Shown in pieces: positions 7,990 to 25,932 of a stretch of 55,901 nucleotides of DNA; position 1 is the stretch's first letter, and each line of letters starts with the position of its first letter. Source of the DNA: a virus; the IMG/VR virus record IMGVR_UViG_3300045988_171564; one strand, written 5' to 3'. Both the position numbers and the translations under genes were made by a program. Under the pieces are notes generated by a model, which was not told the DNA's origin, made no database searches, and saw only the letters and a program-made list of their open reading frames with translations.

Positions 7990-10833
7990 ATGTATCGCGT
8001 CGAAAGCCTGCCAATTAGCATCCCTATTGGGCGACAGGGCGAAAACCATGCGATGAAAATAGAGATAGACTGCTCCAGCTTTTTAGCGGAGTGGCCGCAA
8101 GCCACAATAACCGCCATGCTCAGACGCAGTGTTGCTGAAAACCCGTATATCCTTGTAACCAGCATAGACAGCAGCGGCATATTGACGTGGGAACCCACGG
8201 CGCACGATACCGGCATCGAAGGCGACGGCCAAATTGAAATACGCGCGGTAGAAAACGACGTGCTGGCAAAGTCCGTAACGGCTATCGTGTGCGTTGAACG
8301 CAGTCTTACTCCGCCTGAACCCGACACGCCTATTGATTGGGTTGAGAATATTAAAAGCGATATTGCGCAGTCCGTAACCAGCGCGGCAAACAGCGCAAGC
8401 GATGCGGCCAAAAGCGCCACGTCTGCGCAGGAAAGCGCCACGGCGGCGGCGGGCAGTGCGAGCGCGGCGCAGTCGTCCGCAAACGCGGCGGCGGGGAGCG
8501 CAAGTGCGGCGAGCAAGTCGGCCGCGAGCGCGGCAGCGTCGGCGGACGCGGCGAGCGGGTCGGCAAGCGCGGCGGCACAGTCGGCGGCGGAGGCAGATAC
8601 ATCGGCCAAAGCGTCAGCGGCGAGCGCGGCGGAGGCGGCGGGCACGCTGGATAGTGTCAAGGCGTCGGCGGACGCGGCGGCGGTTTCGGCGCGGGCGGCG
8701 GCTGAATCGGCAAGCGATGCGGCGGGGAGCGCGAGCGCCGCGAGCACATCGGCCACGGGCGCGGCAAAGAGTGCGACGGCGGCCAACACATCCGCACAGG
8801 CGGCGGCGGGATCGGCAGCGGCGGCGCAGTCGAGCGCAACAGCGGCGGCGGCGAGCAAAACGGGCGCGGAAAGTGCCGCGAATACCGCAAAGTCGGAGGC
8901 CGATAAAGCGACGGCGAGCGCGACGGCGGCGGACACGTCCGCACAGGCGGCGGCAGGGTCGGCAGAAGCGGCGGCTCAAAGCGCACAGGGCGCGGCGGAA
9001 GCGGCAAAGGCCGAGGCGGCAAAAATCATACAAGATGGCGCAATCGCGCGCACGTCCACGTGGAGCAGTCAAAAGATAGTAGACCAGCTACATCCGGAGG
9101 TAACGGCGAGCGGGAACCCAGCAGTCATCGAAAATGCGCTTGAGGGCTATCCGATGAGCATAAAAGCGAGCTGGGAGCCTAAGCAGGAAGGTAGTGGCAC
9201 ACCGTCGCCGGATAATGTGAGGCCGATAAAGGGGCGAGATAATGTAAAAATAACAGCCAACGGCACAGAGCACACCCTTGTCTTGCCAGATACTATCTAC
9301 GGCGGCGAGGTGGATGCGGTGACGGGGGCAGGGAATGCAGACATAAAAATAGCAACGGTGGACGGAAATAAAATTAAATTTACGATGAACGGACAATTTT
9401 GGCAACTGCCGCAAAACAGTGCCCCCAACATAGCAGCGATGAAGATGGTAAGCCATTTTCCGGTCAAACTATTTGCGATCAATACAAGATATGATTTTAT
9501 ATTTGTCTCTGCCGAAAAGATTAAAACATACTTTGCAACGATCGAAGAATTTAACGCATATTTATCGGCCCAATATGCCGCGGGAACGCCAATGCAGATA
9601 GCCTACAAGCTTGCCGCTCCGGAGAGCTTCGCGGCGACGGGCGGCGGCAGGATATACGCACTGGCGGGCACCAATAGCATCGTGACCGACGCGGACACTT
9701 TGAAGGTAAAGGCACGCGCGGCGCAGTCGGCCGCAGCGGCGGAGATTATCGACGATACAGTTATCGCGGAGGGTAAGGCGTGGTCGAGTAAGAATACGGT
9801 GGATAAGCTTTTGCCGATGCAGACTGTTACGGGCAATCCAGCAGTCATAGAGACGCTGGAGGGGTATCCCTTGGAGCTGAATGTAAGCTGGGGGCCTAAA
9901 CAAGAGGGCAGCGGCACACCGTCGCCGGATAATGTGAGGCCGATAAAAAGCGCTTTGAGCATATCAATACAAAGAAGCGGTATGAATATGCTTGACCCTG
10001 AAAAAATTCAAGCTAATACATATACCCCATATGGATTAAACGTAAAATACATCGGCAATTCGACGGTGGAAATAAAAGGAGTACTTAATACTGATCCTGG
10101 TGCTTTCGTAATAATGCGGCTAAAGGATAATGTTTTGTCAGGGCGGGGGCTTAAGTTTGCGGCGACAACCATAAGCACGCAAAAGTTAAAGTACAAGTTA
10201 TATGGACTTAGGACTAAAGACGAAGCCGAAATTGCTTTAGTAGGCGATGAAAATCAGTGGATACTAGGAACAAAAATTGATATGAAAATACAAATAGCTA
10301 TATATGCTCCTAAAGCATTTGTAGAAGCATATATACCGTATAGCGGCCAAAGCGTGGCGCTTACCCTACCACGCGCCGTATGCGGCGGTACAATCGCCCC
10401 AAGCACTGGTGCAGGCCAAGAGACATGGGGCTATATCGCCAGCTACGCAGGCGAGACCCTGCCGGGTAAGTGGATCAGCGACAGGGATGAGTATGCGGCA
10501 GGGGCTACTCCTACGATTGGCGCGCAGGTGGCGTACAAGCTGGCTACGCCCGTGCCTTTTACGGCCACGGGCGGGCAGACGGCGCTTGCGCTGGCTGGCA
10601 CAAACGTAGTCATAACCGACGCGGATACTGTGACCATAACCGCCCCCACGCCGCCCCAGACCACGGCGAGCGCGGCAGAAGCTCAGGCGGCAAAGCTGGA
10701 TTACGTCGCCATGATGGCAGACGTGGACGTGGACGACCTGACGGCGGTAGATGATGCAGGCGTGGATACTGGCATGATGGACATGCCGGCGGGCATAGAA
10801 GGGAGCGAGACGGATGGCAAGCAAAAGGTATGA
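7990..10833 (+). CDS. Tail fibre / receptor-binding protein with an Ala/Ser-rich repeat shaft and two tandem distal modules
   Basis: 947 aa. Long SAxSAxxA-type repeats span about 8380-9010. The block GNPAVIE..EGYP..SW.PKQEGSGTPSPDNVRPIK and the block AYKLA.P..F.ATGG...ALAGTN..ITDADT each occur twice. Confidence 0.8.
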   Translation: MYRVESLPISIPIGRQGENHAMKIEIDCSSFLAEWPQATITAMLRRSVAENPYILVTSIDSSGILTWEPTAHDTGIEGDGQIEIRAVENDVLAKSVTAIVCVERSLTPPEPDTPIDWVENIKSDIAQSVTSAANSASDAAKSATSAQESATAAAGSASAAQSSANAAAGSASAASKSAASAAASADAASGSASAAAQSAAEADTSAKASAASAAEAAGTLDSVKASADAAAVSARAAAESASDAAGSASAASTSATGAAKSATAANTSAQAAAGSAAAAQSSATAAAASKTGAESAANTAKSEADKATASATAADTSAQAAAGSAEAAAQSAQGAAEAAKAEAAKIIQDGAIARTSTWSSQKIVDQLHPEVTASGNPAVIENALEGYPMSIKASWEPKQEGSGTPSPDNVRPIKGRDNVKITANGTEHTLVLPDTIYGGEVDAVTGAGNADIKIATVDGNKIKFTMNGQFWQLPQNSAPNIAAMKMVSHFPVKLFAINTRYDFIFVSAEKIKTYFATIEEFNAYLSAQYAAGTPMQIAYKLAAPESFAATGGGRIYALAGTNSIVTDADTLKVKARAAQSAAAAEIIDDTVIAEGKAWSSKNTVDKLLPMQTVTGNPAVIETLEGYPLELNVSWGPKQEGSGTPSPDNVRPIKSALSISIQRSGMNMLDPEKIQANTYTPYGLNVKYIGNSTVEIKGVLNTDPGAFVIMRLKDNVLSGRGLKFAATTISTQKLKYKLYGLRTKDEAEIALVGDENQWILGTKIDMKIQIAIYAPKAFVEAYIPYSGQSVALTLPRAVCGGTIAPSTGAGQETWGYIASYAGETLPGKWISDRDEYAAGATPTIGAQVAYKLATPVPFTATGGQTALALAGTNVVITDADTVTITAPTPPQTTASAAEAQAAKLDYVAMMADVDVDDLTAVDDAGVDTGMMDMPAGIEGSETDGKQKV

Positions 10834-11191
10834 GCTGGTCAAGGAGTACTTTGAGAAGCGGCTTTGGACAAAAAAGATGCTCAAAAATGCCGTGGTCAAG
10901 GGATGGATCACGCAGGATGAGTATGACGAGATAGTAGGCGTGACGGGCGCGCCCGCTGAAGCGGACGGCAGCGGCGAGGCCGCGCCCGACTACGAGCAGA
11001 TGGCCGCCGATGTGCGTGCAAAGCGGGACGCGCTGCTGGCGGCAAGCGACTACACGCAGGCGACCGACTATCCATCCACATATGCCGCGCGTACCGCGTG
11101 GGCGGAGTATCGTCAGCAGCTTAGGGACGTGACCAAGCAATCGGGGTTTCCGGCGGATGTGGTGTGGCCGGTGCCGCCGAAGGAAAAGTAG
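10814..11191 (+). CDS. XkdX-like / tail-fibre-assembly-like protein
   Basis: N-term YELVKEYFEKRLWTKKMLKNAVVKGWITQDEYDEIVG is XkdX-like. C-term RDALLAASDYTQATDYP..WAEYRQQLRDV resembles tail-fibre assembly chaperone motifs. Confidence 0.55.
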   Translation: MASKRYELVKEYFEKRLWTKKMLKNAVVKGWITQDEYDEIVGVTGAPAEADGSGEAAPDYEQMAADVRAKRDALLAASDYTQATDYPSTYAARTAWAEYRQQLRDVTKQSGFPADVVWPVPPKEK

Positions 11192-11268
11192 GTGCACCAT
11201 GCGCGGCACGAGCAATCCGATACGCGCGCCGACCGACGATCGGCGCACAAAAGACATAAAAGGAGTGC

Positions 11269-12057
11269 ATGGATATGACTAAGATTGCGGCGAGCAACTT
11301 TGTGAAATGGCTGCAAAAGCAGCACGACGACAAGTGCGGGTACATCATGGGCACGAGCGGGCAAGCGCCCAAAGACCTGGGCAAAAATAGCTGGTACTTT
11401 ACTCAGTACCACGACCGCGGAGAATATACCGCGGCGCAAGAGGCTAAGGCGCTGTACTGGTATAACAATGCGCCGCGCGTCTTTGACTGCGCGGGCATGG
11501 CGGAGGGCGCGGTGGTCGAGATGCTGGGTCTGCCGCTCAAGGACGTCAATACTAAGGCGCGCTATATATATAGCGACTGGTGCGCAGGCGCGAACAGTAC
11601 CGACATGAGCAGGCTCCCGCGCGAGCCGGGCGTGGCGGTATTTAAGACCCGCTCCAAGCCGGGCGCAATCCACCATATCGGCTACCTCGAGCGCCCGGTG
11701 GTGGAGGGCGACACGGCGGGCGACTGGTACGTGATCGAGGCCAAGGGCGTTATGTACGGCGTGGTACGCACCCGCCTCAACAATGACAAAAACTGGAATT
11801 GCTGGGGCTATATGAAAAAATACTTTGACTACAAAAGCGCGCCGCCCCAGCCCGCGCCGGTCAAACCCGGCCAGATACGCATAACCGGTGGCAGCGTCAA
11901 CCTGCGCACGGGGCCGGGCACGGAGTACGACGTGGGCACCGTGGCACACTACGGCGATACCTACGACCGCGCAAAGACGGACGGCTGGACGCCGGTCAAG
12001 GTGGGCGATGAGGTGCTGTGGGTAAGCGATAAGTATACGGAGGTGGTCAAGATATGA
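11269..12057 (+). CDS. Endolysin: NlpC/P60-like cysteine peptidase with a C-terminal SH3b-like domain
   Basis: Candidate catalytic Cys in FDCAGM and His in HHIGYL. C-term IRITGGSVNLRTGPGTEYDVGTV..DGWTPVKVGDEVLWV is SH3b-like. Lies upstream of the holin gene. Confidence 0.75.
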   Translation: MDMTKIAASNFVKWLQKQHDDKCGYIMGTSGQAPKDLGKNSWYFTQYHDRGEYTAAQEAKALYWYNNAPRVFDCAGMAEGAVVEMLGLPLKDVNTKARYIYSDWCAGANSTDMSRLPREPGVAVFKTRSKPGAIHHIGYLERPVVEGDTAGDWYVIEAKGVMYGVVRTRLNNDKNWNCWGYMKKYFDYKSAPPQPAPVKPGQIRITGGSVNLRTGPGTEYDVGTVAHYGDTYDRAKTDGWTPVKVGDEVLWVSDKYTEVVKI

Positions 12058-12314
12058 CCGATACTATCATCGTAGCGCTTATAACCGGCGGCATAAGCCT
12101 GCTGGGCGTGATAGTGAGCAACGTCGCTACTCACCGCAAAACCATGGCACTAATCGAATATAAACTGCAGGAATTGCGAGGCGACGTGACTACACTAAGC
12201 CGCCGCGTTGATGAGCACAATCATTTGGTAGAGCGCATGGCTGCGGTCGAATCCAGCACTAAATCCGCACACCACAGGCTCGATACCCTTGAGCAAAATA
12301 TAAGGCACGACTAA
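12054..12314 (+). CDS. Lysis-cassette membrane protein (N-terminal TM segment plus coiled coil)
   Basis: TM segment IIVALITGGISLLGVIVSNV is followed by a heptad-like region. Sits between endolysin and holin. Confidence 0.5.
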   Translation: MTDTIIVALITGGISLLGVIVSNVATHRKTMALIEYKLQELRGDVTTLSRRVDEHNHLVERMAAVESSTKSAHHRLDTLEQNIRHD

Positions 12315-12333
12315 CCAAAAGGAGGATTTTGTA

Positions 12334-12681
12334 ATGCAATTCGATTTTACGGCGATTTTTCAGGCGATTCTGGCGCTGCTGGGCGCGATTATCACGTACT
12401 GGCTGGTGCCTTACGTCAAGTCCAAGGCGACCGCGCAGCAGCAGGCCAATGTAGCGATACTTGTGCGCACGGCGGTACAGGCGGCGGAGCAGCTCTACGG
12501 CGCGGGCATGGGCAAGGCCAAGCTGGACTATGCGCAGGCGTGGCTGAACGAGCGCGGCGTAAAGTACAGCCGCGCGGAAATTGAAGCAGCGGTTAGAGAC
12601 CTGAGCAATGATATTATAAGCGTGCTGGGCGCGGGGGACGAGGCGAGTAAGAGCGGCGGCGATAAGTCGGGAGGCGATTAA
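12334..12681 (+). CDS. Holin (LL-H / superfamily-6-like)
   Basis: N-terminal TM FTAIFQAILALLGAIITYWLVPYV, then AILVRTAVQAAEQLYG..GKAKLDYA, typical of LL-H type holins. Confidence 0.65.
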   Translation: MQFDFTAIFQAILALLGAIITYWLVPYVKSKATAQQQANVAILVRTAVQAAEQLYGAGMGKAKLDYAQAWLNERGVKYSRAEIEAAVRDLSNDIISVLGAGDEASKSGGDKSGGD

Positions 12682-13780: not shown

Positions 13781-14239
13781 ATGGATAACATGACCCCCGC
13801 CGACGTAATGGCTATGACGCGAAACGACGGAAACGACAGTTTCTTCGGCGCGAACGGCTTCTTCGGCATAATCGTACTGTTCTTCATATTCGCCATGTTT
13901 GGTGGCGGCAGTATTGGCGGCTGGGGCGGGAACAACGCGGCTGCACAGGGCGCGCTTACCCGCGCGGAGCTGGCTGACGGCTTCAACACCGCCGAAATCC
14001 AGCGCAACCAGAGTGACATTATACGCGACCAGTTTGGCCTTCAGCAGGAAATCATGAACAACCGCTTTGCGCTGGCCGACACGGCGAACGGCACTCAGCG
14101 TGAGATCATGCAGAACCGTTTCGAGAACCAGCAGATAGGCTGTAACACGCAGAAGGAAATCATGCAGAACCGCTACGATAACGCGCTGGCGATGCAGAAC
14201 CTTCAGGCGCAGATGGCCCAGTGCTTGAGAAGAATCGTT
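13781..14239 (+). CDS. Exon 1 of an intron-split membrane protein gene (3' boundary is a model)
   Basis: SD AGGAGG. TM FFGIIVLFFIFAMFGG, then repeated (Q/R)EIMQNR(F/Y) units. The ORF reads on into intron sequence and stops at 14296. Confidence 0.6.
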
Positions 14240-15534
14240 AATGCCATTCGACGGTTCTTTGCACACAAAGATGCAGTAGGCACTTGTGCGGCGTAAGTCG
14301 CACTGGCAACCGGGTGAATTGCTGGAAAGCTAAGTTCGCAGTTGACATTTTCTCACATTCGGCGTATATTACAGATTGCATTTCACGTCGAAGGAGAAAA
14401 GGTGATGTTTTACGTATATGAATGGTACGTCGTCAAAACCAATGAAGTGATATATGTTGGCAAAGGATGTGGCAACCGATATAAGGTGCGTAAGCATAAC
14501 ACCAAATTTGACGCTTTTATAAGCGCGGTTGAATGCAACAGTCGAATCGTAAAAACGTTCGACAATGAAGCAGATGTTTTTGAGTATGAAAAACTACGTA
14601 TAGAAGAGTTACATTCCTTAGGCCAATGTATATGCAACATTTTAGATGGTGGCTTTGGCGGTAGCATTAGCTGGTGGACGGATGAAATGAGAGAACGTTA
14701 TTCGGCTCATAACGTCATGAAAACGTCAATTCAGCGTAATCGCATGAAGACTAATAACCCAATGAGCAATGCGAGCGTTTCCGCAAAGGTTGGCGCTACA
14801 AAGCGAAAACCCTTGATGGTTGACACCGAACAATTTGATTGCCTTTCCGATGCGATCAAAGTTTACGGCAGCAAGGTTGGTTACTGGGTAAAAGTCGGAC
14901 ATACAGCCGATTTCAAGCCATGCTACTATCTGGCCAATGGCAAAAAGCATATTGCTGCAAAACATAGGAATTTAGGCGGCGCAAAGCGTGTCGTTTATAA
15001 CGGCAAAGTCTATGAATGTCAAAGGGATATTTGCCGTAAGTTTGGGTTCTCAGCTTCAACACTCAGCAAATATATCCATCGCGGCTATACTGACGATGGC
15101 ATTGAGTGCAGATTTGAATCCGCTCAACCTGTGCTGCAATACATGCCATATACCGGGGCACGCCCTGTCTTAATAGACGACATACTCTACCCAAGCATAA
15201 AGAATGCGTCCGAGCAGACGAATCTTTATGCGCAAGGAATCCAATACGCGTTGAAACATAGCGGCTTATATAAAGGCCACAAATGCGAATATGCCAATCA
15301 GCAGCCAAGCCTTGTGAAGTCTGATAAAAGTAGCAAGTAAGGTTCAACGACTAACGAGTGAGGACAGACACCAATAATCTCGACACGAGTTCCCGGCTCC
15401 CGTCAAGGGATGAAGATATAGTCTGAACTGTTGAGAAATTAACAGAAGCACAGGATAAAGAGCCTGCGCGATAACACAATGGCTGCGAAACTAAGACGGC
15501 CATACATGCCGAAGGCGAGGCCACGCGCTCGCTG
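14240..15534 (+). mobile_element. Group I intron with an internal GIY-YIG homing endonuclease ORF (boundaries approximate)
   Basis: Core elements: P-like AATTGCTGGAAAGC (14317-14330), Q-like AATCAGCAGCC (15296-15306), R-like GTTCAACGACTA (15342-15353), S-like AAGATATAGTC (15413-15423). Candidate P1 pairs exon AATCGTT (14233-14239) with GACGGTT (14250-14256). G at 15534 is the candidate omega-G. Confidence 0.8.
14405..15340 (+). CDS. GIY-YIG homing endonuclease (intron-encoded)
   Basis: ATG 14405 follows AAGGAGAAAAGG. N-term FYVYEWY..VIYVGKGCGNRYKVRKH..YEKLRIEEL fits the GIY-YIG motifs. C-terminal NUMOD/IENR-like repeats (VVYNGKVYECQRDICRKFGFSASTLSKYI; VLIDDILYPSIKNASEQT). Confidence 0.8.
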   Translation: MFYVYEWYVVKTNEVIYVGKGCGNRYKVRKHNTKFDAFISAVECNSRIVKTFDNEADVFEYEKLRIEELHSLGQCICNILDGGFGGSISWWTDEMRERYSAHNVMKTSIQRNRMKTNNPMSNASVSAKVGATKRKPLMVDTEQFDCLSDAIKVYGSKVGYWVKVGHTADFKPCYYLANGKKHIAAKHRNLGGAKRVVYNGKVYECQRDICRKFGFSASTLSKYIHRGYTDDGIECRFESAQPVLQYMPYTGARPVLIDDILYPSIKNASEQTNLYAQGIQYALKHSGLYKGHKCEYANQQPSLVKSDKSSK

Positions 15535-16264: not shown

Positions 16265-16563
16265 ATACGCTAAAATGGCTGTCCGAAAGGCTGATGGGCA
16301 ACATAAGCGAGGCCAAAGAGTACATCGACAAGGCCTACATGTGCAAGGAATCCGATAAGCCCGTTGCCGATTGGTGCATGGCTATGGCCAACGGACATTT
16401 ACAGTTCAACGTGGCCGGACTGGCGCTGATGGACAAGGCGCTCAACGAATTTTCGGACGAATTGCTTGCACCGGGAGTTAAGGCGGTATACGCGCTTCAG
16501 CGCGCGGAGATCGTCAAGCAGACCTCACATGCGAGGGCGCTTATCGACATGTACGGGAAGTAA
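16261..16563 (+). CDS. Hypothetical helical protein
   Basis: ATGA overlap with the upstream stop suggests translational coupling. 100 aa. Confidence 0.5.
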   Translation: MNTLKWLSERLMGNISEAKEYIDKAYMCKESDKPVADWCMAMANGHLQFNVAGLALMDKALNEFSDELLAPGVKAVYALQRAEIVKQTSHARALIDMYGK

Positions 16564-16574
16564 AAATAAGGCAG

Positions 16575-16606
16575 GAGCGGACGCGACATGCGCCCGCTTT
16601 TTTTAT
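16575..16606 (+). terminator. Rho-independent terminator
   Basis: GAGCGGACGCG..GCGCCCGCT stem followed by TTTTTTT. Confidence 0.6.
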
Positions 16607-16745
16607 TATGCCTGTTATGCTTATTATGTCGATTAAATAACAGACATAGCGTATTGACATTATACCCATTATCGGTGTATCATAATGAGCATAAATTATG
16701 CCCATTATATATATGGCATAACAGACATAACGCACATAATCGGAG
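16606..16745. repeat. CATAAC-type 9-bp repeat arrays flanking the parA promoter (candidate centromere/operator)
   Basis: Left arm is inverted: ttatgcctgttatgc / ttattatgtcg / ataacagacata. Right arm is CATAACAGA-CATAACGCA-CATAATCGG plus cataatgagcataa. Confidence 0.65.
16654..16683 (+). promoter_or_regulatory. Candidate parA promoter
   Basis: TTGACA (16654-16659), 18-nt spacer, TATCAT (16678-16683), embedded in the repeat arrays. Confidence 0.5.
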
Positions 16746-16755
16746 CGTGAGAGAC

Positions 16756-17514
16756 ATGAGAACCATCGTAATAGCAAATCAGAAGGGCGGCGTGGGCAAA
16801 ACCACGACCGCACACGCGATGATCGCAGGGCTTGCCAAGCGCGGCTTCAGCGTGCTGGGCATTGACCTTGACCCACAAGGCAATTTATCGTCCGCGTGCG
16901 GCGCGGATCAGTACGACGGGCCCACGACGTATGAAGTGTTGACCGGCAAGGCAAGTGTATCCAGCGCGATTCAAGAATTGGGCAAACCGCGCTATAAGCT
17001 CTTAGCGGCCAATATAATGCTTGCAAGTGCCGAACAGGAACTAACACAGGTGGGCAAGGAATATCGCCTTAGAGAGGCGCTGACGGGCTTACAGGGCATT
17101 GATTACGTGATAGTTGATACGCCGCCGTCGCTGGGCATACTGACCGTCAACGCCTTTACCGCCGCGAACTGCGTAATCATACCCACTACGGCGGGCGTGT
17201 TCGCCGCAACCGGCATAGACCAGCTCAACATTACCATTGGCAACGTGCGCAAGTATTGCAACCCCGGACTGTATATCGCGGGCATACTGTTTACCCGATA
17301 CAACGCGCGCACGAACGTTGGTCGTCAGATAAGGACGCTGACAGAGCAGCTAGGCGAGCGCATATCCGCGCCGACTTACCACACCTGCATCCGTTCGGCG
17401 GTAGCGGTGGAAGAAGCGCAAATCAGCCGGGAGGATATATTTACCTATGCGGCAAGTTCGACCGTCGCCGCCGACTATAACGACTTTCTGAAGGAGTTCT
17501 TGGAAAATGGCTAA
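16756..17514 (+). CDS. parA: ParA/Soj-family partition ATPase
   Basis: Deviant Walker A in IANQKGGVGKTTTAHA, and DYVIVDTPPSLG. The upstream part of the 16588 ORF is repeat DNA, so ATG 16756 is taken as the start. Confidence 0.85.
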   Translation: MRTIVIANQKGGVGKTTTAHAMIAGLAKRGFSVLGIDLDPQGNLSSACGADQYDGPTTYEVLTGKASVSSAIQELGKPRYKLLAANIMLASAEQELTQVGKEYRLREALTGLQGIDYVIVDTPPSLGILTVNAFTAANCVIIPTTAGVFAATGIDQLNITIGNVRKYCNPGLYIAGILFTRYNARTNVGRQIRTLTEQLGERISAPTYHTCIRSAVAVEEAQISREDIFTYAASSTVAADYNDFLKEFLENG

Positions 17515-17788
17515 AAAGGCATTTGATACGGACAGGCTGTATGGCAATTTTATGAGCGTCAAGGAACGGGATGAGCAGGAAGAGCCCGCACGCAAGAGCA
17601 GTGCAAAAAGGCGCGTATGCTTTGCCGTGCCCGCCGACGTGTACGCCGACGCGCAGAAGATAGCGCAGGTAAGGCTCACCAGTGTAAGTGAGATCGTGTC
17701 GAGACTGCTGACCGAATACGTTGCCCGGAATCGGGAAGCGCTTGCAGAGTACGACACCTTAAAGGCCAAAAGTCAAGAAAAGAGCTAA
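17507..17788 (+). CDS. ParG-like ribbon-helix-helix partition/centromere-binding protein
   Basis: Overlaps the parA stop. RRVCFAVPADVYADAQKIAQVRLTSVSEIVSRLL fits an RHH (beta-alpha-alpha) pattern, preceded by a basic flexible N-terminus. Confidence 0.6.
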   Translation: MAKKAFDTDRLYGNFMSVKERDEQEEPARKSSAKRRVCFAVPADVYADAQKIAQVRLTSVSEIVSRLLTEYVARNREALAEYDTLKAKSQEKS

Positions 17789-17872
17789 GACAAAAGTGAA
17801 GAACGTAAGAAAAAAGCTAAGACCATTTTGTTGACCCCACCAAAACGGCAGACCATTTTTCCGAGGCCGGAA

Positions 17873-17905
17873 AAAAGCCCCCAGAATCGCTTCTGAGGGC
17901 TTTTG
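17873..17905. terminator. Hairpin terminator after the par operon
   Basis: AAAAGCCC-CCAGA..TCTGA-GGGCTTTT. A- and T-runs on both sides make it potentially bidirectional. Confidence 0.6.
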
Positions 17906-18497
17906 CTTTGCAGACTAGCAAATATGCGTCTGCCCCGCAAAAACGCCTTAGAAGTCAAATGCGGGGCTTACAGAGGCATCGTAGCATATGCGAACTTGTT
18001 GACATCCAAAAACATGCTTAAAAGGGCACAAAAAAGAGCTTACGGCCATTGCTCGAAGCAAGGCGGTAAACTCTTTTTTTGTGCCTGGGATAATGCTATT
18101 TCAATCCACGCTGGCCTTGCGGCCAGTGACATTGGCGTTGCCGCCTTTGACAATCGGACAGCTTATTCTGAGTCACCCCTGCTAATGCGGGGAAAATGCA
18201 CACCAGACACAGCGGTATCACTGTTCGACTGCTTATACATGATAGCACGCCATGATGCTTTTGTCAAACACAAAAACAGCCCGGAGAGGTTGACGGAAAC
18301 CCCTCCGGACTGCCCTCATGCGAAAGATAGGCAACCATGTCGCGTAATGATTATACCACATTCGCAGGAAGGTGTCAATACGGGAATGCCCCTCAGAGGC
18401 TCTAAAATCGATTCTAAGCGGTTTTTGTGGGGTGGAGTAGTAAATACACCACTTTGGGCGGAAAACGCCTTAGAATCAATTCTCGGGCGTTATAGCG
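17906..18497. other. About 600 nt of hairpin-rich, apparently non-coding DNA between the par and rep genes
   Basis: Several long inverted repeats, e.g. GGCACAAAAAAGAG..CTCTTTTTTTGTGCC (18025-18086), CTGGCCTTGCGGCCAG and GCCCCGC..GCGGGGC. Direct repeat AAAACGCCTTAGAA at both ends. The only long ORF (17903..18535) lacks an SD and a plausible composition. Confidence 0.5.
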
Positions 18498-19274
18498 CTA
18501 TCCGAGTTTATTCACTCGTTTGTAGTGCGCCATAGTCGCCTGCAATCGGGAGGGCGCGTTGATTACGAACTCCACACTCTCTATGCTTCTGCCGCCATTT
18601 CTGCGTGGCTCATAGTCTATGTGTATGTCATCGCATCGTTCGTTTATTTCCGAGATTGCGTCTCGTAATACCCTTCTGTCAAAGTCTGCCCAGCGTGGGT
18701 AATTTGCCACACATAGAACGTTTCTAAGCTCGTCGAGAGAGTATTTCACGATTTGAGTTTGATGGGTTTCAAGCTGCTTTTGGGTAACATGAGAACGCAA
18801 TATCTCGTAAAGCCTTATTGCGTATCTGTTTCCAAACACGAGCACGTTTTGCAATTTGTACTGCGTGTAGTTTTGCCTTAGGCCAAAAAGAAACGGCTCC
18901 ATATGCGGGTTGAATCTAATCTCAACTTTGGAACTGTTGTAATTTATCTTACAGTCGCCGATCCATGACATTGTTTGCTCCGTGCCATCTGGCATAGTGC
19001 ACCATTCGCGCCTTGTCAGTGCGTTGAGATTGTCTTTTAACGAGCGATAATAATATCCGCCATCTTCGTAAGCGAATCCACAAGCCCTGCAAAACTCATC
19101 AAGGTTGATTGTGTATACGGTGTTGGAAGTATCGTCGGGTTTTATCTTGGATATGGCAAACAAAACGATTTTCTGCTGCTGGGTTGTGAGACTATATCGC
19201 GAACGTCTTATAAGCTCGTTGGCTTTTACAACATATTGTTCTCTGTCCATAACCGTTTTTTTGCTGCTTGCCAT
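18498..19274 (-). CDS. rep: Rep_3/RepB-type plasmid replication initiator
   Basis: N-term VVKANELIRRSRYSLTTQQQKIVLFAISKIKPDD is typical of iteron-binding Rep_3 initiators. Iterons lie upstream. Confidence 0.8.
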   Translation of the reverse strand: MASSKKTVMDREQYVVKANELIRRSRYSLTTQQQKIVLFAISKIKPDDTSNTVYTINLDEFCRACGFAYEDGGYYYRSLKDNLNALTRREWCTMPDGTEQTMSWIGDCKINYNSSKVEIRFNPHMEPFLFGLRQNYTQYKLQNVLVFGNRYAIRLYEILRSHVTQKQLETHQTQIVKYSLDELRNVLCVANYPRWADFDRRVLRDAISEINERCDDIHIDYEPRRNGGRSIESVEFVINAPSRLQATMAHYKRVNKLG

Positions 19275-19300
19275 TGTATTCCCCTCCCTTGCTTTCGGGT

Positions 19301-19330
19301 ATTATACCATGCTTTGCCTTAAGGTGTCAA
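19301..19330 (-). promoter_or_regulatory. Candidate rep promoter
   Basis: Minus strand reads TTGACA (19330-19325), 18-nt spacer, TATAAT (19306-19301), then SD AAGGGAGGGG. GTCACTTTT half-iterons lie just upstream at about 19349 and 19376. Confidence 0.65.
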
Positions 19331-19575
19331 CGGTGAGTTCGCATTGTCACTTTTACACCTTTGAACGATTTTTCGTCGTCACTTTTTTCGTCATCTTGAA
19401 ATCCGTTTTTCGCGCGCGCGCGTGCGTATTACTTCCCATATGTAGTTACTTCTAAAATACTTTAGGTAACCCTGATGTATAGTAGCTTAATATAGTATAA
19501 GACTGTATCTAGATACTATACTTCTTTACTTAGAGCAAAAAAAAGCCCGAAAAATGGGCACTTTAAGGCATTTGA

Positions 19576-19728
19576 GTGACAGTTTTCTCCCCCGGAAGTG
19601 ACACTTTTCTCCGTCTCAATGGTGACACTTTCCTCCGTGGTTCGGTGACACTTTTCTCCGTTAGAGTGACACTTTTCTCCGTCTCAATGGTGACACTTTC
19701 CTCCGTGGTTCGGTGACACTTTTCTCCG
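19576..19728. repeat. Seven direct iterons GTGACAC(T)TTTCTCCG at 21-24 bp spacing (plasmid origin)
   Basis: Copies start at 19576, 19598, 19622, 19645, 19666, 19690 and 19713. The 68-bp unit 19598-19665 is duplicated at 19666-19733. Confidence 0.9.
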
Positions 19729-19812
19729 TGCTTCATCGGCTTAACTATGTACTTTTTTTCCGGGGAATCGAACCCACTCGCGCGAATGAATAAACAGCGA
19801 TTTAAAATTAAA

Positions 19813-19873
19813 GTGAGAAAAGGTGCGCATTAAGGTGAGAAATGGTGCGCATTGGGTGAGAAATGGTGCGCAC
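19813..19873. repeat. Three inverted-orientation iteron-like repeats GTGAGAAA(A/T)GGTGCGCA
   Basis: Copies start at 19813, 19835 and 19856. GAGAAAAGGTG resembles the reverse complement of the iteron core (GGAGAAAAGTGTCAC). Confidence 0.75.
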
Positions 19874-19948
19874 TTTTTGCCCCCAAAACGCGCGGAAACA
19901 CCTTCAAACCGCAAAAACGCGAACATTTGTGTCAATTCCGTGCACAGC

Positions 19949-20000
19949 TTATCAACATAAAACGCAGAGTTATCAACCGCTTTTCAACAGATTATGCACA
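19949..20000. promoter_or_regulatory. Cluster of DnaA-box-like 9-mers next to the iterons
   Basis: TTATCAACA (19949), TTATCAACC (19970), TTTTCAACA (19981) and TTATGCACA (19992), compared with consensus TTATNCACA. Confidence 0.55.
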
Positions 20001-20126
20001 AGCAAAATTGCTATCAAAAGGCTAAAAAGCTGCGGCTCCAAAATAAATTTAGTAATCGCTGGAATACGTCGACACATAACAGCATATATAATATTACACG
20101 ATAATTAACGAAAGGAGGGCTTTGAA

Positions 20127-20315
20127 GTGAAGCATCACGGCAGTAAACCCAGATATGCGGGATGTTATTACGACACAATAAACGCGCCGGAATTTGACCA
20201 TCTGTGCGCAATAGTCGATATTACGAGGCGTGCCGTATATATCAACCGCGCGGCCAAACCCGGCGCGAATCTTATTCAGCTAATTGCAAGGCGTGCAGAC
20301 GGAGACGATGGTTAG
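20127..20315 (+). CDS. Possible small protein (62 aa)
   Basis: GTG start about 7 nt after AGGAGG. No recognisable motif. Converges on the minus-strand gene 20312..20569. Confidence 0.35.
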   Translation: MKHHGSKPRYAGCYYDTINAPEFDHLCAIVDITRRAVYINRAAKPGANLIQLIARRADGDDG

Positions 20316-20569
20316 TCATCGCCGCTAGCGCCCATAATGTCATCAAGCCAGCAGCGCAAGCGCCACTTGATGTAAATCATACTGGGGCAAGCCTTTAACC
20401 ACATGGGTATGTACTTGCTGTCGCGCCACGACTTTTTACCCTCGCTTTCGGCGGCAATGTCCTCAGCTATGGCCTTTTCGCGCTCGACGCGCATTTCGTC
20501 CCAGTAGTTCCAGCTTCTTGTTTCGGTCGTGACCTTATTTTCTCCAAGCGGTATGTCATTCAGCGACAT
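20312..20569 (-). CDS. Hypothetical protein (85 aa)
   Basis: ATG at 20569 follows GGGAGGTG. The longer 20632 start would include the terminator hairpin. Confidence 0.55.
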   Translation of the reverse strand: MSLNDIPLGENKVTTETRSWNYWDEMRVEREKAIAEDIAAESEGKKSWRDSKYIPMWLKACPSMIYIKWRLRCWLDDIMGASGDD

Positions 20570-20831: not shown

Positions 20832-21311
20832 TTATGCACCCGAACGAGTGCCTTTGTCAAGAGATTTGTGCAACTTTTCCGACTGCGCAATTTGTTCGTC
20901 TACCTCGCCGTTGTCCAGGTGGTCGGGGAGCTGTCCGGCGGTCGAACATCTTTCGTATTCCAACTCAAGGACGGTATTAACAAGCTTCTTGCCGTGCTCA
21001 TCAAGCGTGCGAAGCTTAGTCAACGTGCTATATTCATCGGCTGATATGGACACGACCATGTTCATCTTCACTGATGCTTGTATCGCGTTTGCAGCGGCAA
21101 GCGCTTCCTCGTTGGTCTGCATAAAGAAGCAATCCAGTGACACGCCTAAGTAATCAGCAATACGTGCCAGCGTATCCATATCCATCTTGTCGCTGTCACG
21201 CTGAATCAAGCTGTACAGTGTCGTCTTATTTAGCCCTAAATCATTGGCTAATGTAGCAACTCTCACTCCTTTCATATCTAAGATAGTCTTCAACTTACTT
21301 CCAAGCCCCAT
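20832..21311 (-). CDS. CI-like XRE-family HTH repressor (alternative start 21317)
   Basis: GLGSKLKTILDMKGVRVATLANDLGLNKTTLYSLIQ HTH. SD GAAGGAGG. Divergent from the cro-like gene. No S24 peptidase motif in the C-terminal half. Confidence 0.75.
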   Translation of the reverse strand: MGLGSKLKTILDMKGVRVATLANDLGLNKTTLYSLIQRDSDKMDMDTLARIADYLGVSLDCFFMQTNEEALAAANAIQASVKMNMVVSISADEYSTLTKLRTLDEHGKKLVNTVLELEYERCSTAGQLPDHLDNGEVDEQIAQSEKLHKSLDKGTRSGA

Positions 21312-21343
21312 TGGCATTACCTCCTTCACGATATATTGTACCA

Positions 21344-21413
21344 CACTTTTGCGTACAAGTAAATAGAAAAGTATGCAAAAGTAGAAAAAACTATTGACAA
21401 GTACGCAAAAGTG
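21344..21413. promoter_or_regulatory. Three operator-like sites in the divergent immunity promoter region
   Basis: CACTTTTGCGTAC (21344-21356), GTATGCAAAAGT (21371-21382) and GTACGCAAAAGTG (21401-21413). The outer two are exact inverted copies. Confidence 0.7.
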
Positions 21414-21422
21414 TGATATAGT
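21394..21422 (+). promoter_or_regulatory. Early rightward promoter
   Basis: TTGACA (21394-21399), 17-nt spacer, TATAGT (21417-21422). The spacer contains operator 3. Confidence 0.7.
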
Positions 21423-21477: not shown

Positions 21478-21714
21478 ATGGTCTACACGAATCTAAAGAT
21501 GCTCATGGCCGCAAAGTCGGTGAGCATTGATTCTATTGCGACGTTGCTTAATGTACATCGCAATACAGTTGCCAACAAGATCAACGGCGAAAGCGCATTT
21601 GATTTTGACCAAGCCATGACGATTGCGTCAACGTTTTTCCCAGAGTATCGACCAACTTACATTTTTAAGCGCTTTGCAGCGCAGCAGACCGAATCTGACG
21701 CAAACCCATCATAA
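21478..21714 (+). CDS. Cro-like XRE HTH regulator
   Basis: SVSIDSIATLLNVHRNTVANKINGES HTH. First gene of the rightward operon. Confidence 0.65.
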   Translation: MVYTNLKMLMAAKSVSIDSIATLLNVHRNTVANKINGESAFDFDQAMTIASTFFPEYRPTYIFKRFAAQQTESDANPS

Positions 21715-21730: not shown

Positions 21731-22495
21731 ATGAACGAACTCAAGACTTTTCAGAACCCGAAATTCGGAACGATAAGAACCACGACCATCAACGGTGAAC
21801 CGTGGTTCGTGGCGGTTGACGTGTGCAAGGCGTTGGAGATACAGAATAATCGCGATGCTATTTCGCGGTTGGATGATGATGAGAAGAATACCGTAGTTTT
21901 AACCGACGGTAATCGAGGGAACCCGAACATGACCATCGTCAACGAACCCGGCCTTTACGCTTTGGTTCTTAGCAGCCGCAAGCCGGAGGCGAAAGCATTC
22001 AAACGCTGGATAACGCACGACGTAATCCCCACCATCCGCAAGCACGGCGCATACATGACGCCGGAGAAGGTAGAAGAAATCCTGCTGAACCCGGACACGA
22101 TAATCAAGCTGGCGACGGATCTGAAAGAAGAGCGCGAGCGCACGGCGGCACTGAACGCCAAGATAAAGGCGGATAAGCCCTACACGGAGTTTGGCGCGGC
22201 GATAGCGGCCAACAGCGACGCGATACTGGTAAGGGACTTTGCAAAGCTGCTTCACAACGACGGCATTAAGATGGGTGAGAAGCGGCTGTACAAGTGGCTG
22301 AGGGAGAATGGATTCCTGATGCAGACCGCGCCCACGAAGCCGTATCAAAAGTATGTGGATATGGGATGGTTCAGAGTTGATGAAAGGTCAATAAGCACGG
22401 TGCAGGGGCAGATGATAGTGAGCACGACCAAGATAACCGGCAAAGGGCAGATGGGACTGCTGAGTGCGCTTAGGGCTAGCCGGGGAGGGAATTAA
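21731..22495 (+). CDS. Antirepressor (Bro-N domain plus KilAC-like C-terminal domain)
   Basis: FGTIRTTTINGEPWFVAVDVCKALEI..RDAISRLDDDEK is Bro-N-like. The C-terminal half ILVRDFAKLLHNDGIKMGEKRLYKWLRENGFL is KilAC-like. Confidence 0.75.
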   Translation: MNELKTFQNPKFGTIRTTTINGEPWFVAVDVCKALEIQNNRDAISRLDDDEKNTVVLTDGNRGNPNMTIVNEPGLYALVLSSRKPEAKAFKRWITHDVIPTIRKHGAYMTPEKVEEILLNPDTIIKLATDLKEERERTAALNAKIKADKPYTEFGAAIAANSDAILVRDFAKLLHNDGIKMGEKRLYKWLRENGFLMQTAPTKPYQKYVDMGWFRVDERSISTVQGQMIVSTTKITGKGQMGLLSALRASRGGN

Positions 22496-22499
22496 AGAG

Positions 22500-23363
22500 A
22501 TGGACGAAGTGAGCGAAGGCGTAAGAGGTTATAAGGTTTTCAAGTCCGATTGGACTTGCCAAGGCAAGCAGTATACTTGTCCGGGCAAATTTGAAGAAAA
22601 CGTTAAGCTGTTGATCTGCTCACGTGGTATACACTTTTGCAAGAAAGCGGTGGATTGCTTTAATTATTACGATTTTGACCCCGATTTCCACGTTGCTGAG
22701 GTAGTTGCGTATGGGCGAGTGGTAGAGCGAGACGATAAATGCGTGACGGACAAATTAGAAATCGTGCGCGAAATTTCATGGCATGAGGTGCTTGACTTAA
22801 CGAACACCGGCAACAATTGCACGGGATTTAAGAATAGCGGCGATGAAAATAGTGGCAATTTGAATAGCGGCAATAGAAATAGTGGCCATGGAAATAGTGG
22901 TCATGGAAATAGCGGCAATTTGAATAGCGGCGATGTGAATAGTGGCGATAGAAATAGTGGCAATAGAAACAGTGGCGACTGGAATAAATGCAGCAACTCC
23001 AACGGCTGTTTCAATACAATTCCGCAGCAAACGATCTACATGTTTAACAAGCCGTCCAACTGGAGCTATGCCGATTGGCTTACCAGCCGTGCAGCTTTTA
23101 TTCTTTCTGCTGCACCGTGTAGCAGAACTAAATGGGTCGCGCTGTCCGCAATGACAGACGTTGAAAAGACGGAACATCCCGAAGCCGTGACTGTGGGGGG
23201 CTTCTTACGCAAAGTCGAAGTAAGTGCAGCTGAGGTCAACCGATGGTGGCAAAGCTTGCCGAGCAATAGCAAAGAAGAGGTTCTGTCACTCCCTAACTTT
23301 GACAAGGCGATATTCAAGGAAATAACCGGCATAAATGTAGACGTTGAACGGATTTACGATTAG
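22500..23363 (+). CDS. Pentapeptide-repeat protein, paralog 1 (Cys-rich N-domain, about 10 NSGxx units, conserved C-domain)
   Basis: ATG 22500 follows GGGGAGGGA. NSGDENSGNLNSGNRNSGHGNSGHG... The C-domain CFNT..FNKPSNW..PNFDK.IFK.ITGI.VD matches 26008..26715. Confidence 0.75.
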   Translation: MDEVSEGVRGYKVFKSDWTCQGKQYTCPGKFEENVKLLICSRGIHFCKKAVDCFNYYDFDPDFHVAEVVAYGRVVERDDKCVTDKLEIVREISWHEVLDLTNTGNNCTGFKNSGDENSGNLNSGNRNSGHGNSGHGNSGNLNSGDVNSGDRNSGNRNSGDWNKCSNSNGCFNTIPQQTIYMFNKPSNWSYADWLTSRAAFILSAAPCSRTKWVALSAMTDVEKTEHPEAVTVGGFLRKVEVSAAEVNRWWQSLPSNSKEEVLSLPNFDKAIFKEITGINVDVERIYD

Positions 23364-24656: not shown

Positions 24657-24988
24657 GAGAGGTTTCCAACGACATTGAGACAAGGGCGGCGGTGCTTACC
24701 GACGCGGCAGACATTATCAACAGCGCGCTAAAGCTGTTCGAGGGGCTGGAGGATGCAGCGCTGGACGATCTGACAGGCATACTGGAGGAAGCGCGCAATG
24801 AAGCGGCGTTCCAGCTCAAGCTCATACGCAGCAGGTTTTCCGACGCGCCCGACGACGACGAGCTGCTTGAGATGAAGCACGAAAACGACAGGTACGGCTA
24901 TAAGATGGATTGTGAATATCCCAATATCCGAACGAACTATCTGTACACCGACGACGGCCGTAGTATTGCATCGGAGGTGGAGCTTTAA
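24653..24988 (+). CDS. Hypothetical acidic protein
   Basis: 111 aa. Overlapping start and stop with its neighbours. Confidence 0.5.
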   Translation: MREVSNDIETRAAVLTDAADIINSALKLFEGLEDAALDDLTGILEEARNEAAFQLKLIRSRFSDAPDDDELLEMKHENDRYGYKMDCEYPNIRTNYLYTDDGRSIASEVEL

Positions 24989-25932
24989 TGCAGCCCAGAG
25001 TATTCGCGAGCACGAAGGATATGCCGCGCGAAACGTGGCTTAAAATGCGCAAAAAAGGCATAGGCGGCAGCGACGCCGCCGCGATACTGGGCATGAGCCA
25101 CTACGCCACGCCTTACAGCGTGTACGCCGATAAGGTGGGCGCACTGCCCGAAAAGGACGATACGGAGGCTATGCGGCAGGGGCGCGACCTGGAAGAATAC
25201 GTCGCGCAGCGCTTTACCGCCCAGACCGGCATAAAGGTAAGGCGGCGCAATCAGATGCTTCAGAACCCGGAGCACCCGTTCATGCTGGCCGACATTGACC
25301 GCGAATGCGTGGGTCTTAATGGCATACGCGCCGGTCTGGAGATAAAGACCACCCGTGACATATACCTAAAGCGGTTCAAGGACGGCGAGTACCCAGATGA
25401 ATACTACTGCCAGTGTATGCACTACATGGCGGTGACAGGCTGGGAAAGATGGTATCTGGCGGTGCTGGTATACGGCACGGACTTTATGATATTCCAGATT
25501 GACCGCGACGAAGACGAGATTCAGGCGCTTATCAAGGCAGAGGAAGCCTTTTGGACAGACCTTGAAAAGGGCATAGCGCCGCCCGTGGACGGACGCGCGC
25601 CCACCGAAACGGCGGTCAGCGCAATGTACCCGGCGGTCAATGAGGGCGACGACGAAGTGCAATTGTCGTGCGGCGACGCGATAAGCAATTATATGGCGCT
25701 GGAGGCTCAAATAAAGCTGCTGGAGCGTGAGCGCGACCGCAACAAGGAAATCATACAGTGCGAGATGCAGGACGCGCCTAAGGCCGTTTGCGGGGCTTAC
25801 AGGGTATCCTGGAAGCCGTCGGTACGGTCTACACTGGATATAAAGCGGTACATCGCCGATCACGGCAAGATTGACGCAGACTATTATAAGACAACCGTTT
25901 CGAGGCGGTTTGCGATTAAGGAGATTAAGTGA
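24988..25932 (+). CDS. YqaJ-type (lambda Exo-like, PD-(D/E)XK) recombination exonuclease
   Basis: ETWLKMRKKGIGGSDAAAILGMSHYATPYSVY and GLEIKT motifs. A RecT gene lies nearby. Confidence 0.8.
   Translation: MQPRVFASTKDMPRETWLKMRKKGIGGSDAAAILGMSHYATPYSVYADKVGALPEKDDTEAMRQGRDLEEYVAQRFTAQTGIKVRRRNQMLQNPEHPFMLADIDRECVGLNGIRAGLEIKTTRDIYLKRFKDGEYPDEYYCQCMHYMAVTGWERWYLAVLVYGTDFMIFQIDRDEDEIQALIKAEEAFWTDLEKGIAPPVDGRAPTETAVSAMYPAVNEGDDEVQLSCGDAISNYMALEAQIKLLERERDRNKEIIQCEMQDAPKAVCGAYRVSWKPSVRSTLDIKRYIADHGKIDADYYKTTVSRRFAIKEIK

Follow-up and report, generated by a model that had tools for sequence, protein, structure and literature searches.

A plasmid-type partition and replication module in the closed genome of a tailed phage, a probable phage-plasmid of gut Clostridia

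The IMG/VR virus record IMGVR_UViG_3300045988_171564 is a stretch of 55,901 nucleotides (nt), referred to here as the window. It carries a compact module of plasmid type that consists of a partition operon (par) preceded by a candidate centromere, a conserved non-coding spacer, and a rep gene with an iteron-containing origin; genes for a lysogeny switch follow directly to the right. Phage-plasmids, which the original prediction took this genome to represent, are an established class (PMC7969092). That prediction, made from the sequence of the window, described a closed circle with a full siphovirus gene set, a full plasmid maintenance set and no integrase.

The first gene of the par operon, parA (16756-17514, plus strand), encodes a small Walker-type partition ATPase of 252 amino acids (aa) without an N-terminal DNA-binding domain. 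The longest open reading frame (ORF) at this place runs from 16588 to 17514, yet the real start is the ATG at 16756, which has GGAG ahead of it and gives the length called in relatives. The protein contains the motif NQKGGVGKTT, in which the deviant Walker A sequence KGGVGKTT occupies residues 9-16; an N-terminal helix-turn-helix (HTH) is absent. It matches AAA_31 (1e-45) and CbiA (4e-21) in Pfam and 'ParA-like partition protein' in PHROG (1e-52), and its top NCBIfam match is ParA_partition, under the cutoff of that model. The best tblastn matches are plasmid ParA proteins, from Butyricicoccus (48%) and from Lawsonia and Enterococcus (45%).

The second gene (17507-17788, plus strand) overlaps the parA stop by 8 nt and encodes a protein of 93 aa with a basic, disordered N-terminus and a conserved stretch of 55 residues at the C-terminus. 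All 31 homologues found are on contigs of the same phage family. The original prediction had described an overlapping, ParG-like partner with a ribbon-helix-helix (RHH) fold. The overlap is as described, and the fold is borne out in part: the protein itself matches Pfam RHH_5 at E=0.1, and a homologue (P0151) that is 62% identical to it, and nearly the same over the C-terminal 55 residues, clears the RHH_5 threshold over the same stretch (30.5 bits vs 26). Searches for the fold by PDB sequence, PDB profile and Foldseek gave nothing informative, the AlphaFold monomer is one long helix, and there is no detectable sequence similarity to ParG. Judged by its position and its homologue, the 93-aa protein is a probable ParG-like centromere-binding protein.

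Upstream of parA, nine TTATG/CATAA boxes at 16603-16745 surround the parA promoter (TTGACA-18-TATCAT, 16654-16683 in a promoter scan). The promoter is bracketed by a triplet of boxes at 16606, 16615 and 16624, in 9-bp phase, and an inverted triplet at 16717, 16726 and 16735; central boxes lie at 16681, 16690 and 16696. Nine boxes in the 160 nt upstream of parA make this the densest such cluster in the window, and composition-matched shuffles give a mean of 0.65 and a maximum of 5. The region is kept in five family members; a conserved 22-mer of the par promoter had no match in an exact-pattern metagenome scan. This region looks like a centromere or operator and, less firmly, its layout fits the type Ib small-ParA systems, whose short phased repeats are covered by a small dimeric DNA-binding protein. 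At the other end, the par operon is closed by a bidirectional intrinsic terminator (17873-17904), whose 14-bp stem has an A-run on one side and a T-run on the other. In most relatives a gene for a protein of 299-316 aa with several HTH_3 domains lies between the 93-aa gene and the spacer; it is absent here (junction 17742-17767; 11626-12607 in the related contig L002). Just right of this junction are two 17-nt direct repeats, with AAGAAAAGAGCTAAGAC at 17775 and a near-copy at 17807.

The rep gene (18498-19274, minus strand) encodes a Rep_3 initiator of 258 aa with WH1 and WH2 domains. It matches Rep3_N (5.6e-34) and Rep3_C (2.7e-15) in Pfam, and its NCBIfam matches to RepM and RepE are under their cutoffs. 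The region upstream of rep contains, in order, the rep promoter with partial iterons, a (CG)n run, an AT-rich stretch, the iterons, a set of 17-nt repeats and a cluster of DnaA-box-like sequences. The promoter (19330 to 19301, minus strand; TTGACA-18-TATAAT) agrees with the consensus at 12 of 12 positions and has an extended TG; partial iterons (GTCACTTTT) just upstream of it at 19346 and 19378 make the region 19301-19386 (minus strand) a candidate autoregulatory operator. The (CG)n run (19409-19426) is followed by a candidate DNA-unwinding element (19440-19540), with a GC content of 27.5% at 19440-19519 against 45-60% in 2-kb windows genome-wide. This combination of (CG)n run and AT-rich stretch recurs in relatives that bear unrelated Rep alleles.

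The iterons proper are seven direct 16-nt repeats (19576-19728, plus strand) of the form GTGACA(C/G)TTT(T/C)CTCC(G/C), with a spacing of 21-24; the pattern has 7 matches here, where 0.43 would be expected, and none elsewhere in the window. Three 17-nt repeats (19812-19871, plus strand; (A/G)GTGAGAAA(A/T)GGTGCGC) are inverted relative to the main iterons, and their core, GAGAAA(A/T)GGT, is common to the iteron reverse complement. L002 retains two copies at this position, and its own iterons (GGTGAGAAAAAGTTCCG) share that orientation. The DnaA-box-like 9-mers (19949-20000, plus strand) are TTATCAACA at 19949, TTATCAACC at 19970, TTTTCAACA at 19981 and TTATGCACA at 19992; one-mismatch matches to the DnaA box number 19 in the window vs 9 expected. 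The cluster is kept in L002 and in a second related contig, L023, and a third, L028, has a non-homologous cluster with a perfect TTATCCACA. As parts of an origin, the AT-rich stretch is better supported than the boxes. The ParA with its KGGVGKTT motif, the Rep_3-type initiator, the seven direct iterons and the three inverted iteron-like repeats of the original prediction are all confirmed by these matches, and the DnaA-box-like 9-mers it listed are present at 19949, 19970 and 19992, in a cluster that relatives retain.

Between par and rep is a conserved non-coding spacer of 709 nt (17789-18497, minus strand) made up of promoter-plus-terminator units. Its RNA folds with z-scores of -7.4 and -9.0, individual hairpins have z-scores of -5.8 and -6.9, and its promoters match the consensus at 12 of 12 and 11 of 12 positions. 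Downstream of one promoter (18378 to 18350) come a perfect 24-bp hairpin and a U-run, for a product of about 78 nt; the second (18267 to 18239) is followed by a structured RNA that ends at a long hairpin (18025-18085). Some relatives have a third promoter-plus-terminator unit, on a 125-nt insertion. These units look like small-RNA genes. Rfam gave no match in the par-rep region at E up to 1, and a search for targets of the putative small RNAs gave matches of at most 12 nt, at chance level, and no antisense target. The spacer is absent from small Rep plasmids and is therefore part of the phage backbone, not of the replicon. An ORF of 210 aa that extends across most of the spacer (17903-18535) is spurious; the 125-nt indel in relatives breaks its frame.

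Directly right of the origin are genes for a CI-like repressor (20832-21344, minus strand; Pfam HTH_26 9.7e-10, with a weak match to Phage_CI_repr), a Cro-like HTH protein of about 78 aa (21478-21714, plus strand; HTH_26 1.5e-4) and an antirepressor with Bro-N and KilAC/ANT domains (21731-22495, plus strand; Pfam 9.7e-27 and 6.8e-23). The listed ORF of the Cro-like gene starts at 21394 and overlaps its own promoter (21394-21422); relatives call a 78-aa gene there. The presence of a CI/Cro/antirepressor switch indicates that the phage is temperate. Further right is a phage-type replication and recombination module (24988-31317, plus strand) for a YqaJ exonuclease, RecT, a replisome organiser, DnaB and RusA. 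YqaJ, RecT, DnaB and RusA are identified by Pfam matches, and the organiser or DnaD-like loader (28496-29338) by PHROG matches to DnaD-like, O-like and replisome-organizer families. The predicted lytic replication set thus stands in these five members; the ORF that had been called a single-stranded DNA-binding protein (27621-28076) has no match in Pfam, NCBIfam or PHROG-type profile scans.

The genome around the module is a closed circle. The 27 nt at the start of the window are the same as the 27 nt at its end, and, with this duplicate trimmed, a tape-measure ORF of 1269 aa (54417 to 2352) reads over the junction without a break; the genes called here in relatives encode 1264-1269 aa. The structural genes detected are those for the large terminase, portal, major capsid protein (gene region 50387-51295), tape measure and tail fibres, so that both the circle and the siphovirus structural set are as originally described. 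The small terminase gene (TerS) is at 35789-36454 and the holin gene at 12334-12681, and the ORF at 11269-12057 is a putative endolysin gene assigned from position alone, as it is the gene at the lysin position of relatives. Two ORFs on the minus strand are spurious: 11113-11949, antisense to the putative endolysin ORF, and 35200-36294, antisense to MazG/TerS. The best capsid match among deposited phages is 48% identical, and the genome has no close relative among them. Capsid variants are present in UniRef, one at a listed identity of 100% as 'Siphoviridae sp. ctzyE57' and another as 'MAG TPA: Major capsid protein [Caudoviricetes sp.]'; this genome or a near-twin is therefore already publicly catalogued, without a lifestyle annotation.

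Such a gene set bears on the idea that the element is a plasmid carrying a defective prophage, which would replicate and partition and give no infectious particles. Virion production is not judgeable from sequence, and phage-like plasmids of Clostridia are hard to distinguish from phage-plasmids (PMC6127314). Against this, all head, tail, packaging and lysis genes that were scanned for are present and the tape-measure ORF is intact; the capsid protein recurs at an identity of at least 95% in about 226 contigs (summed contig column) from many samples, which suggests active transmission; and the element is listed in viral catalogues, both as an IMG/VR viral genome record and under 'Siphoviridae sp. 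ctzyE57'. A defective prophage is, on these grounds, the most improbable of the explanations weighed here. Under the operational definition of a phage-plasmid given by Pfeifer et al. (2021; PMC7969092), the genome has genes for packaging, head, tail, lysis (the endolysin by position) and a lysogeny switch, together with a plasmid-type initiator and a partition system.

The Rep family is found mainly on plasmids, and the best matches of ParA are plasmid proteins. At least 285 Rep homologues exist, mostly 50-60% identical to the window Rep and mostly on contigs of 3-10 kb; in species-representative genomes they are confined to small contigs, from Oscillospiraceae, Acutalibacteraceae, Lachnospiraceae and other Clostridia. 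Homologues at 34-53% identity are carried by circular Clostridia contigs of 4.6-15 kb, for example L006 (5.4 kb), and the Acutalibacter sp. 1XD8-36 assembly has another circular carrier, a scaffold of 12.5 kb. Three Clostridia Rep contigs were checked, and each has its own iterons, phased at 22 bp, immediately upstream of rep. A Rep homologue is encoded by more than 5000 PLSDB plasmids vs 19 phage records. The replicon and the partition ATPase are therefore of plasmid type and not look-alike phage origin proteins. At the nucleotide level, blastn of 16400-20400 gave one weak phage match, no plasmid match and no close relative in the collections searched. Single-protein scans with Rep of viral and genome collections, and an alignment-based viral scan, returned nothing; an IMG/VR family member (a 54.7-kb record) has a different Rep allele and was reached only via YqaJ. 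From the distribution of these homologues the host is probably a member of the gut Clostridia, of the order Oscillospirales.

The phage backbone is found at 86-96% identity in hundreds of metagenome contigs, reached by look-ups with the 93-aa protein, the resolvase described below and the capsid protein in independent assemblies from ENA, Logan, JGI and NCBI. The Rep proteins closest to that of the window (74-79% identical) are on contigs of 48-53 kb that have the same gene order and are 92-96% identical to the window over tail, lysis, par, immunity and early genes. In every relative read (dozens of assemblies) the par-rep module is intact and at the same place, and the module is therefore not a chimera; misassembly is excluded.

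What differs among these near-identical genomes is the replicon. Five or more Rep alleles were found on the backbone, and in all four origins read the iterons vary in step with Rep. The window has seven copies of GTGACACTTTTCTCCG; L002, with a Rep 75% identical to that of the window, has nine copies of GGTGAGAAAAAGTTCCG; L028 (Rep 40%) has four copies of CGTGACATTTAGTACGG; and L023 (Rep 34%) has five copies of GGGCAACGTTTAGTACG. A further contig, L046, has a Rep that is 35% identical to the window Rep and 65% identical to that of L023. The iterons of L002 and the window have a common core (GAGAAAAGT), and the L002 array is oriented oppositely. The layout of the origin is the same in the four members read, with Rep proteins 34-75% identical. 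Co-variation of Rep and iterons is good evidence that the iterons are Rep-binding sites and that the replicon is in use and, together with the intact state of the module, it implies selection on function.

Similarity of the window to L023 and L046 breaks off at 18509 and returns at 19875, and similarity to L028 does so at 18496 and 20039. A cassette of about 1.4 kb has therefore been exchanged between conserved flanks. In L028 (origin 8723-9600) the CGTGACATTTAGTACGG iterons are accompanied, further along, by single relics of window-type and L002-type iterons, which look like the footprint of a past cassette replacement. The cI cassette varies independently of rep: L046 has the CI of the window with another Rep, and L023 and L028 differ in both.

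A more distant phage, L066, has a YqaJ (41% identical) and an antirepressor (37%) in the same order and carries a tyrosine integrase gene left of its repressor and antirepressor genes. The par-rep module of the window, which lies between the lysis genes and cI, is near the position of that integrase. A plasmid replication and partition module thus occurs where related phages carry an integrase, and the prophage is therefore most likely a free circular plasmid in its host. Another IMG/VR record whose YqaJ is 41% identical, L060 (34.6 kb), comes from a separate lineage of smaller phages and has its own Rep_3 gene (3815-4651; Rep3_N 1.4e-21) between genes for an amidase lysin and a DnaB helicase, so Rep_3 has been gained more than once by phages of this group.

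The Rep_3-iteron origin could instead serve as an infection-phase origin, with ParA acting elsewhere, in DNA positioning or host interference, and with no stable plasmid prophage. Some phages have par-like genes without a known plasmid state, such as the SPO1-like 'BigBertha' group (PMC7969092), and the Rep_3 gene of L060 lies beside that for its DnaB helicase. The window, however, encodes a complete further replication module that includes an organiser and a helicase, and it has CI, Cro and an antirepressor yet no means of integration that could be found. In addition, rep, the iterons and par are in the lysogeny-side arm by cI, outside the early lytic operon, and replicon cassettes are swapped among near-identical genomes, as plasmid incompatibility predicts. 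An origin used only during infection is consequently improbable, with a small chance of being correct.

No tRNA was found in the window. The ORFs scanned gave no integrase domain, and none appears in the precomputed Pfam tables for relatives, which take in about 10-30 kb and 34-56 kb of the genome; both results agree with the original statement that neither an integrase nor a tRNA fragment is present. The sole site-specific recombinase found is, as also predicted, a serine recombinase of resolvase/invertase type (44652-45254, plus strand; 200 aa). It has a Resolvase domain (3.4e-31, residues 2-146) with RVST at residues 7-10 and a weak HTH_7 match at residues 150-188, and its PHROG match is to DNA invertase (1.7e-49). 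Seventeen contigs encode it at 100% identity, and at all eight of the places shown its gene is just upstream of the large terminase gene. An invertase role was considered and set aside: no inverted repeats were found flanking the minus-strand island (36472-43745) or the tail-fibre genes, so this role is not supported. From its family the enzyme is a candidate multimer resolvase. A 15-nt repeat occurs in three copies (44141, 44189 and 44289) upstream of the resolvase operon, with no clear dyad subsites; these could be a res site or packaging sites. The divergent intergenic stretch that contains them (44050-44330), upstream of the HTH-resolvase operon, is GC-rich and laden with repeats, among them three GCC(T/C)CTTAGCTGGCC-like 15-mers and three CCTTGTACG(T/C) decamers, and has several C-runs.

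The lengths and ends of the family contigs bear on whether the element is an ordinary prophage that integrates by means of a host Xer-type recombinase or an unrecognised integrase, with par-rep as plasmid cargo or a relic. Among contigs whose capsid protein is at least 95% identical, the maximum length is 59,246 nt, and the long ones are mostly 52-57 kb; the longest in the par, rep and resolvase look-ups are 47-57 kb. In length histograms for the par partner and the resolvase the 50-200 kb bin is filled and the bins above 200 kb are empty, and capsid relatives down to 74% identity, in a third collection, are on contigs of at most 63.6 kb. The position of the module on the contigs is permuted, at 20-33 kb of 52.8 kb, 8-20 kb of 55.8 kb or the last 12 kb of 54.6 kb, which is the expectation for a circle cut at arbitrary points. 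The contig ends inspected, which are those within 10 kb of the query gene and do not include the ends of the 59,246-nt contig, are all in phage sequence; several are at the iteron region, whose repeats and differences between alleles would interrupt assembly. No host-joined contig was seen among the family contigs of reported length (several hundred), which is indirect yet consistent evidence against integration.

Several large proteins of the minus-strand island have no family assignment, and metagenome assemblies often break at prophage borders; both leave some room for integration. It is nevertheless very unlikely, given that no integrase domain or tRNA was found, that several hundred family contigs of up to about 59 kb have permuted starts and, where inspected, ends in phage sequence, that the module is intact in every relative read, and that par-rep is near the integrase position of the distant relative L066.

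The phage-plasmid reading of the original prediction is accordingly supported: what it calls for at the level of sequence is present, and the comparative evidence agrees. The genome is very probably that of a complete temperate tailed phage of gut Clostridia whose prophage is a free, low-copy circular plasmid and does not integrate. A number of observations weigh on the other side. The plasmid state of the prophage is read from sequence alone, and the host solely from where Rep and ParA homologues occur; like the plasmid state, every biochemical step and the assignment of each replication module to a phase are inferred. In mixed populations, breaks in assembly at the borders of a prophage could account in part for the short contigs, and a circularly permuted or cohesive-ended virion genome also assembles as a circle. 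The DnaA boxes carry one or two mismatches each and are statistically weak alone, the RHH fold of the 93-aa protein is not reproduced by structure prediction, and no convincing res site for the resolvase was identified. Finally, this genome is without the gene of about 300 aa with multiple HTH domains that belongs to the par-rep module of most relatives, and could therefore be a reduced variant.

In the free plasmid prophage proposed here, Rep would bind the seven iterons and, with host DnaA at the nearby boxes, would melt the AT-rich stretch for theta replication. Binding to the partial iterons at its promoter would allow Rep to repress its own gene, and the three inverted repeats may add a further level of copy-number control. 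The 93-aa protein would coat the 9-bp-phased TTATG/CATAA boxes, repressing the par operon and forming the partition complex, and ParA would then separate sister copies at cell division. The serine resolvase probably turns dimers back into monomers. The CI/Cro/antirepressor switch beside the origin would decide between the plasmid state and lytic growth; in the latter, the organiser-DnaB-RecT-YqaJ-RusA module probably takes over replication.

A tentative extension, with a chance somewhat short of even, is that maintenance and immunity are assembled by mix-and-match: the cassette of about 1.4 kb (rep, promoter, AT-rich stretch and iterons) would be swapped, through recombination in its conserved flanks, independently of cI, and putative small RNAs of the spacer may couple maintenance to the lysis-lysogeny decision, in the manner of the c4 RNA of P1. 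Independent swapping of the cassettes would place near-identical phage-plasmids in different incompatibility and immunity groups, so that they could co-reside or displace each other. To our knowledge, cassette exchange of this kind has not been described for phages of gut Clostridia, and a literature search found no paper on phage-plasmids of Oscillospiraceae.

Known systems resemble the element in different parts. In P1, RepA binds iterons at oriR, which also has DnaA boxes; lytic growth uses a separate replicon, ParA, ParB and parS provide partition, and Cre/lox resolves dimers. The window has counterparts of these elements, with an iteron Rep and DnaA-box-like 9-mers, a separate module of phage type, a partition system and a resolvase-type site-specific recombinase. 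P1, however, is a 94-kb enterobacterial myovirus with a large type Ia ParA, an HTH ParB and a tyrosine recombinase as resolvase, and it has no sequence relationship to the element in the window.

The Rep_3 iteron plasmids (pPS10, pSC101, F with RepE, and Acinetobacter plasmids with RepM) have the same WH1 and WH2 Rep, direct iterons phased at about 22 bp by an AT-rich stretch and DnaA boxes, and iteron-like sites at the rep promoter. The window differs in that its Rep matches RepM and RepE below their cutoffs and in that its replicon is embedded in a phage genome; the closest relatives of its Rep are uncharacterised small plasmids of gut and rumen Clostridia. The type Ib partition systems (ParF-ParG-parH of TP228 and par2 of pB171) share with the window a small ParA without a DNA-binding domain, followed by a small protein (about 90 aa) whose N-terminus is flexible and whose C-terminus is RHH (in the window, probably RHH), and short phased repeats upstream that overlap the promoter. 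In contrast, the partner in the window is without detectable ParG similarity and its repeat is TTATG at a 9-bp phase, whereas the TP228 site is a different, shorter box. Burkholderia phage KS14, described as a plasmid prophage, is among the few phage records with a Rep_3 homologue.

The closest parallels in lifestyle are the Clostridioides difficile phages phiCD38-2 and phiSemix9P1, which are temperate, carry parA and exist as extrachromosomal circles (PMC6127314). Like the window element they are temperate phages of Clostridia with parA, and phiSemix9P1, a circle of 56.6 kb in which ParA is followed by a small ORF, also has a protein of the RepB/Rep_3 family. This protein is 26% identical to the window Rep, the window capsid is without a close match, and the window phage probably infects another host family (Oscillospirales). 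About 6 kb separate rep and parA in phiSemix9P1, whereas in the window they form one compact module between the lysis genes and cI. By its gene content the window element appears to belong to an already documented lifestyle, that of Clostridia plasmid prophages with ParA and RepB/Rep_3. In cluster A mycobacteriophages that carry it, parABS is at the position of the integration cassette and lysogeny is extrachromosomal (PMC7969092). As in the window, the partition module is at the position where other family members hold an integrase; in contrast to the window, those phages are not known to have a plasmid-type Rep-iteron replicon, and the hosts are actinobacteria.

Several features elsewhere in the genome were also noted. 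The 7.3-kb minus-strand block at 36472-43745 lies between the small and large terminase genes and encodes an FtsK/SpoIIIE-type ATPase (38399-39238), a beta-solenoid protein, a DnaJ-domain protein and several proteins without a family. Its gene content differs among near-identical relatives, which suggests an island of variable cargo or counter-defence genes. An island gene of 354 aa is labelled AcrVA2-like in the precomputed tables of relatives, a label that our own Pfam scan did not reproduce. Within the island ORF 41250-41975, the stretch 41394-41800 contains many copies of an 18-nt unit similar to GCCGTATACGCGGGCGYT, which implies a six-residue repeat in the protein. The island also includes a type-P5 twister ribozyme (40002-40056, minus strand; Rfam RF02684, 60.4 bits vs a gathering score of 37.6, E=3.9e-10); its place between the co-directional genes 40047-41027 and 39287-39988 means that it would cut their shared transcript.

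At 14224-15481 is a 1.26-kb insertion that is absent from L001, L023, L028 and L046. Its ORF (14342-15340) is homing-endonuclease-like, with a PHROG homing endonuclease match of 3.9e-12 and a weak I-TevI DNA-binding domain; a further relative, L032, has a 311-aa gene at the place of this insertion. In the early region, 22464-23363 and 26008-26715 are paralogues; their products contain pentapeptide repeats (runs of N-x-G-x-x) and resemble each other at the C-terminus, and that of the first includes a DUF7666 domain.

Phage-plasmids spread genes in two ways, as viruses and as plasmids, and most work on them has been done in enterobacteria, Bacillus and C. difficile. The lineage described here seems to be common in human and animal gut metagenomes, where it is represented by hundreds of contigs listed only as 'Siphoviridae sp. 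ctzyE57' or 'Caudoviricetes sp.', and its hosts are probably hard-to-culture Oscillospirales. Its compact, sequence-defined replicon and partition module is a potential genetic tool for bacteria without such tools. For surveys of viromes it means that integrase-less phages should not be scored as virulent by default, and the replicon swaps within a single phage backbone offer a natural experiment on how such exchange happens.

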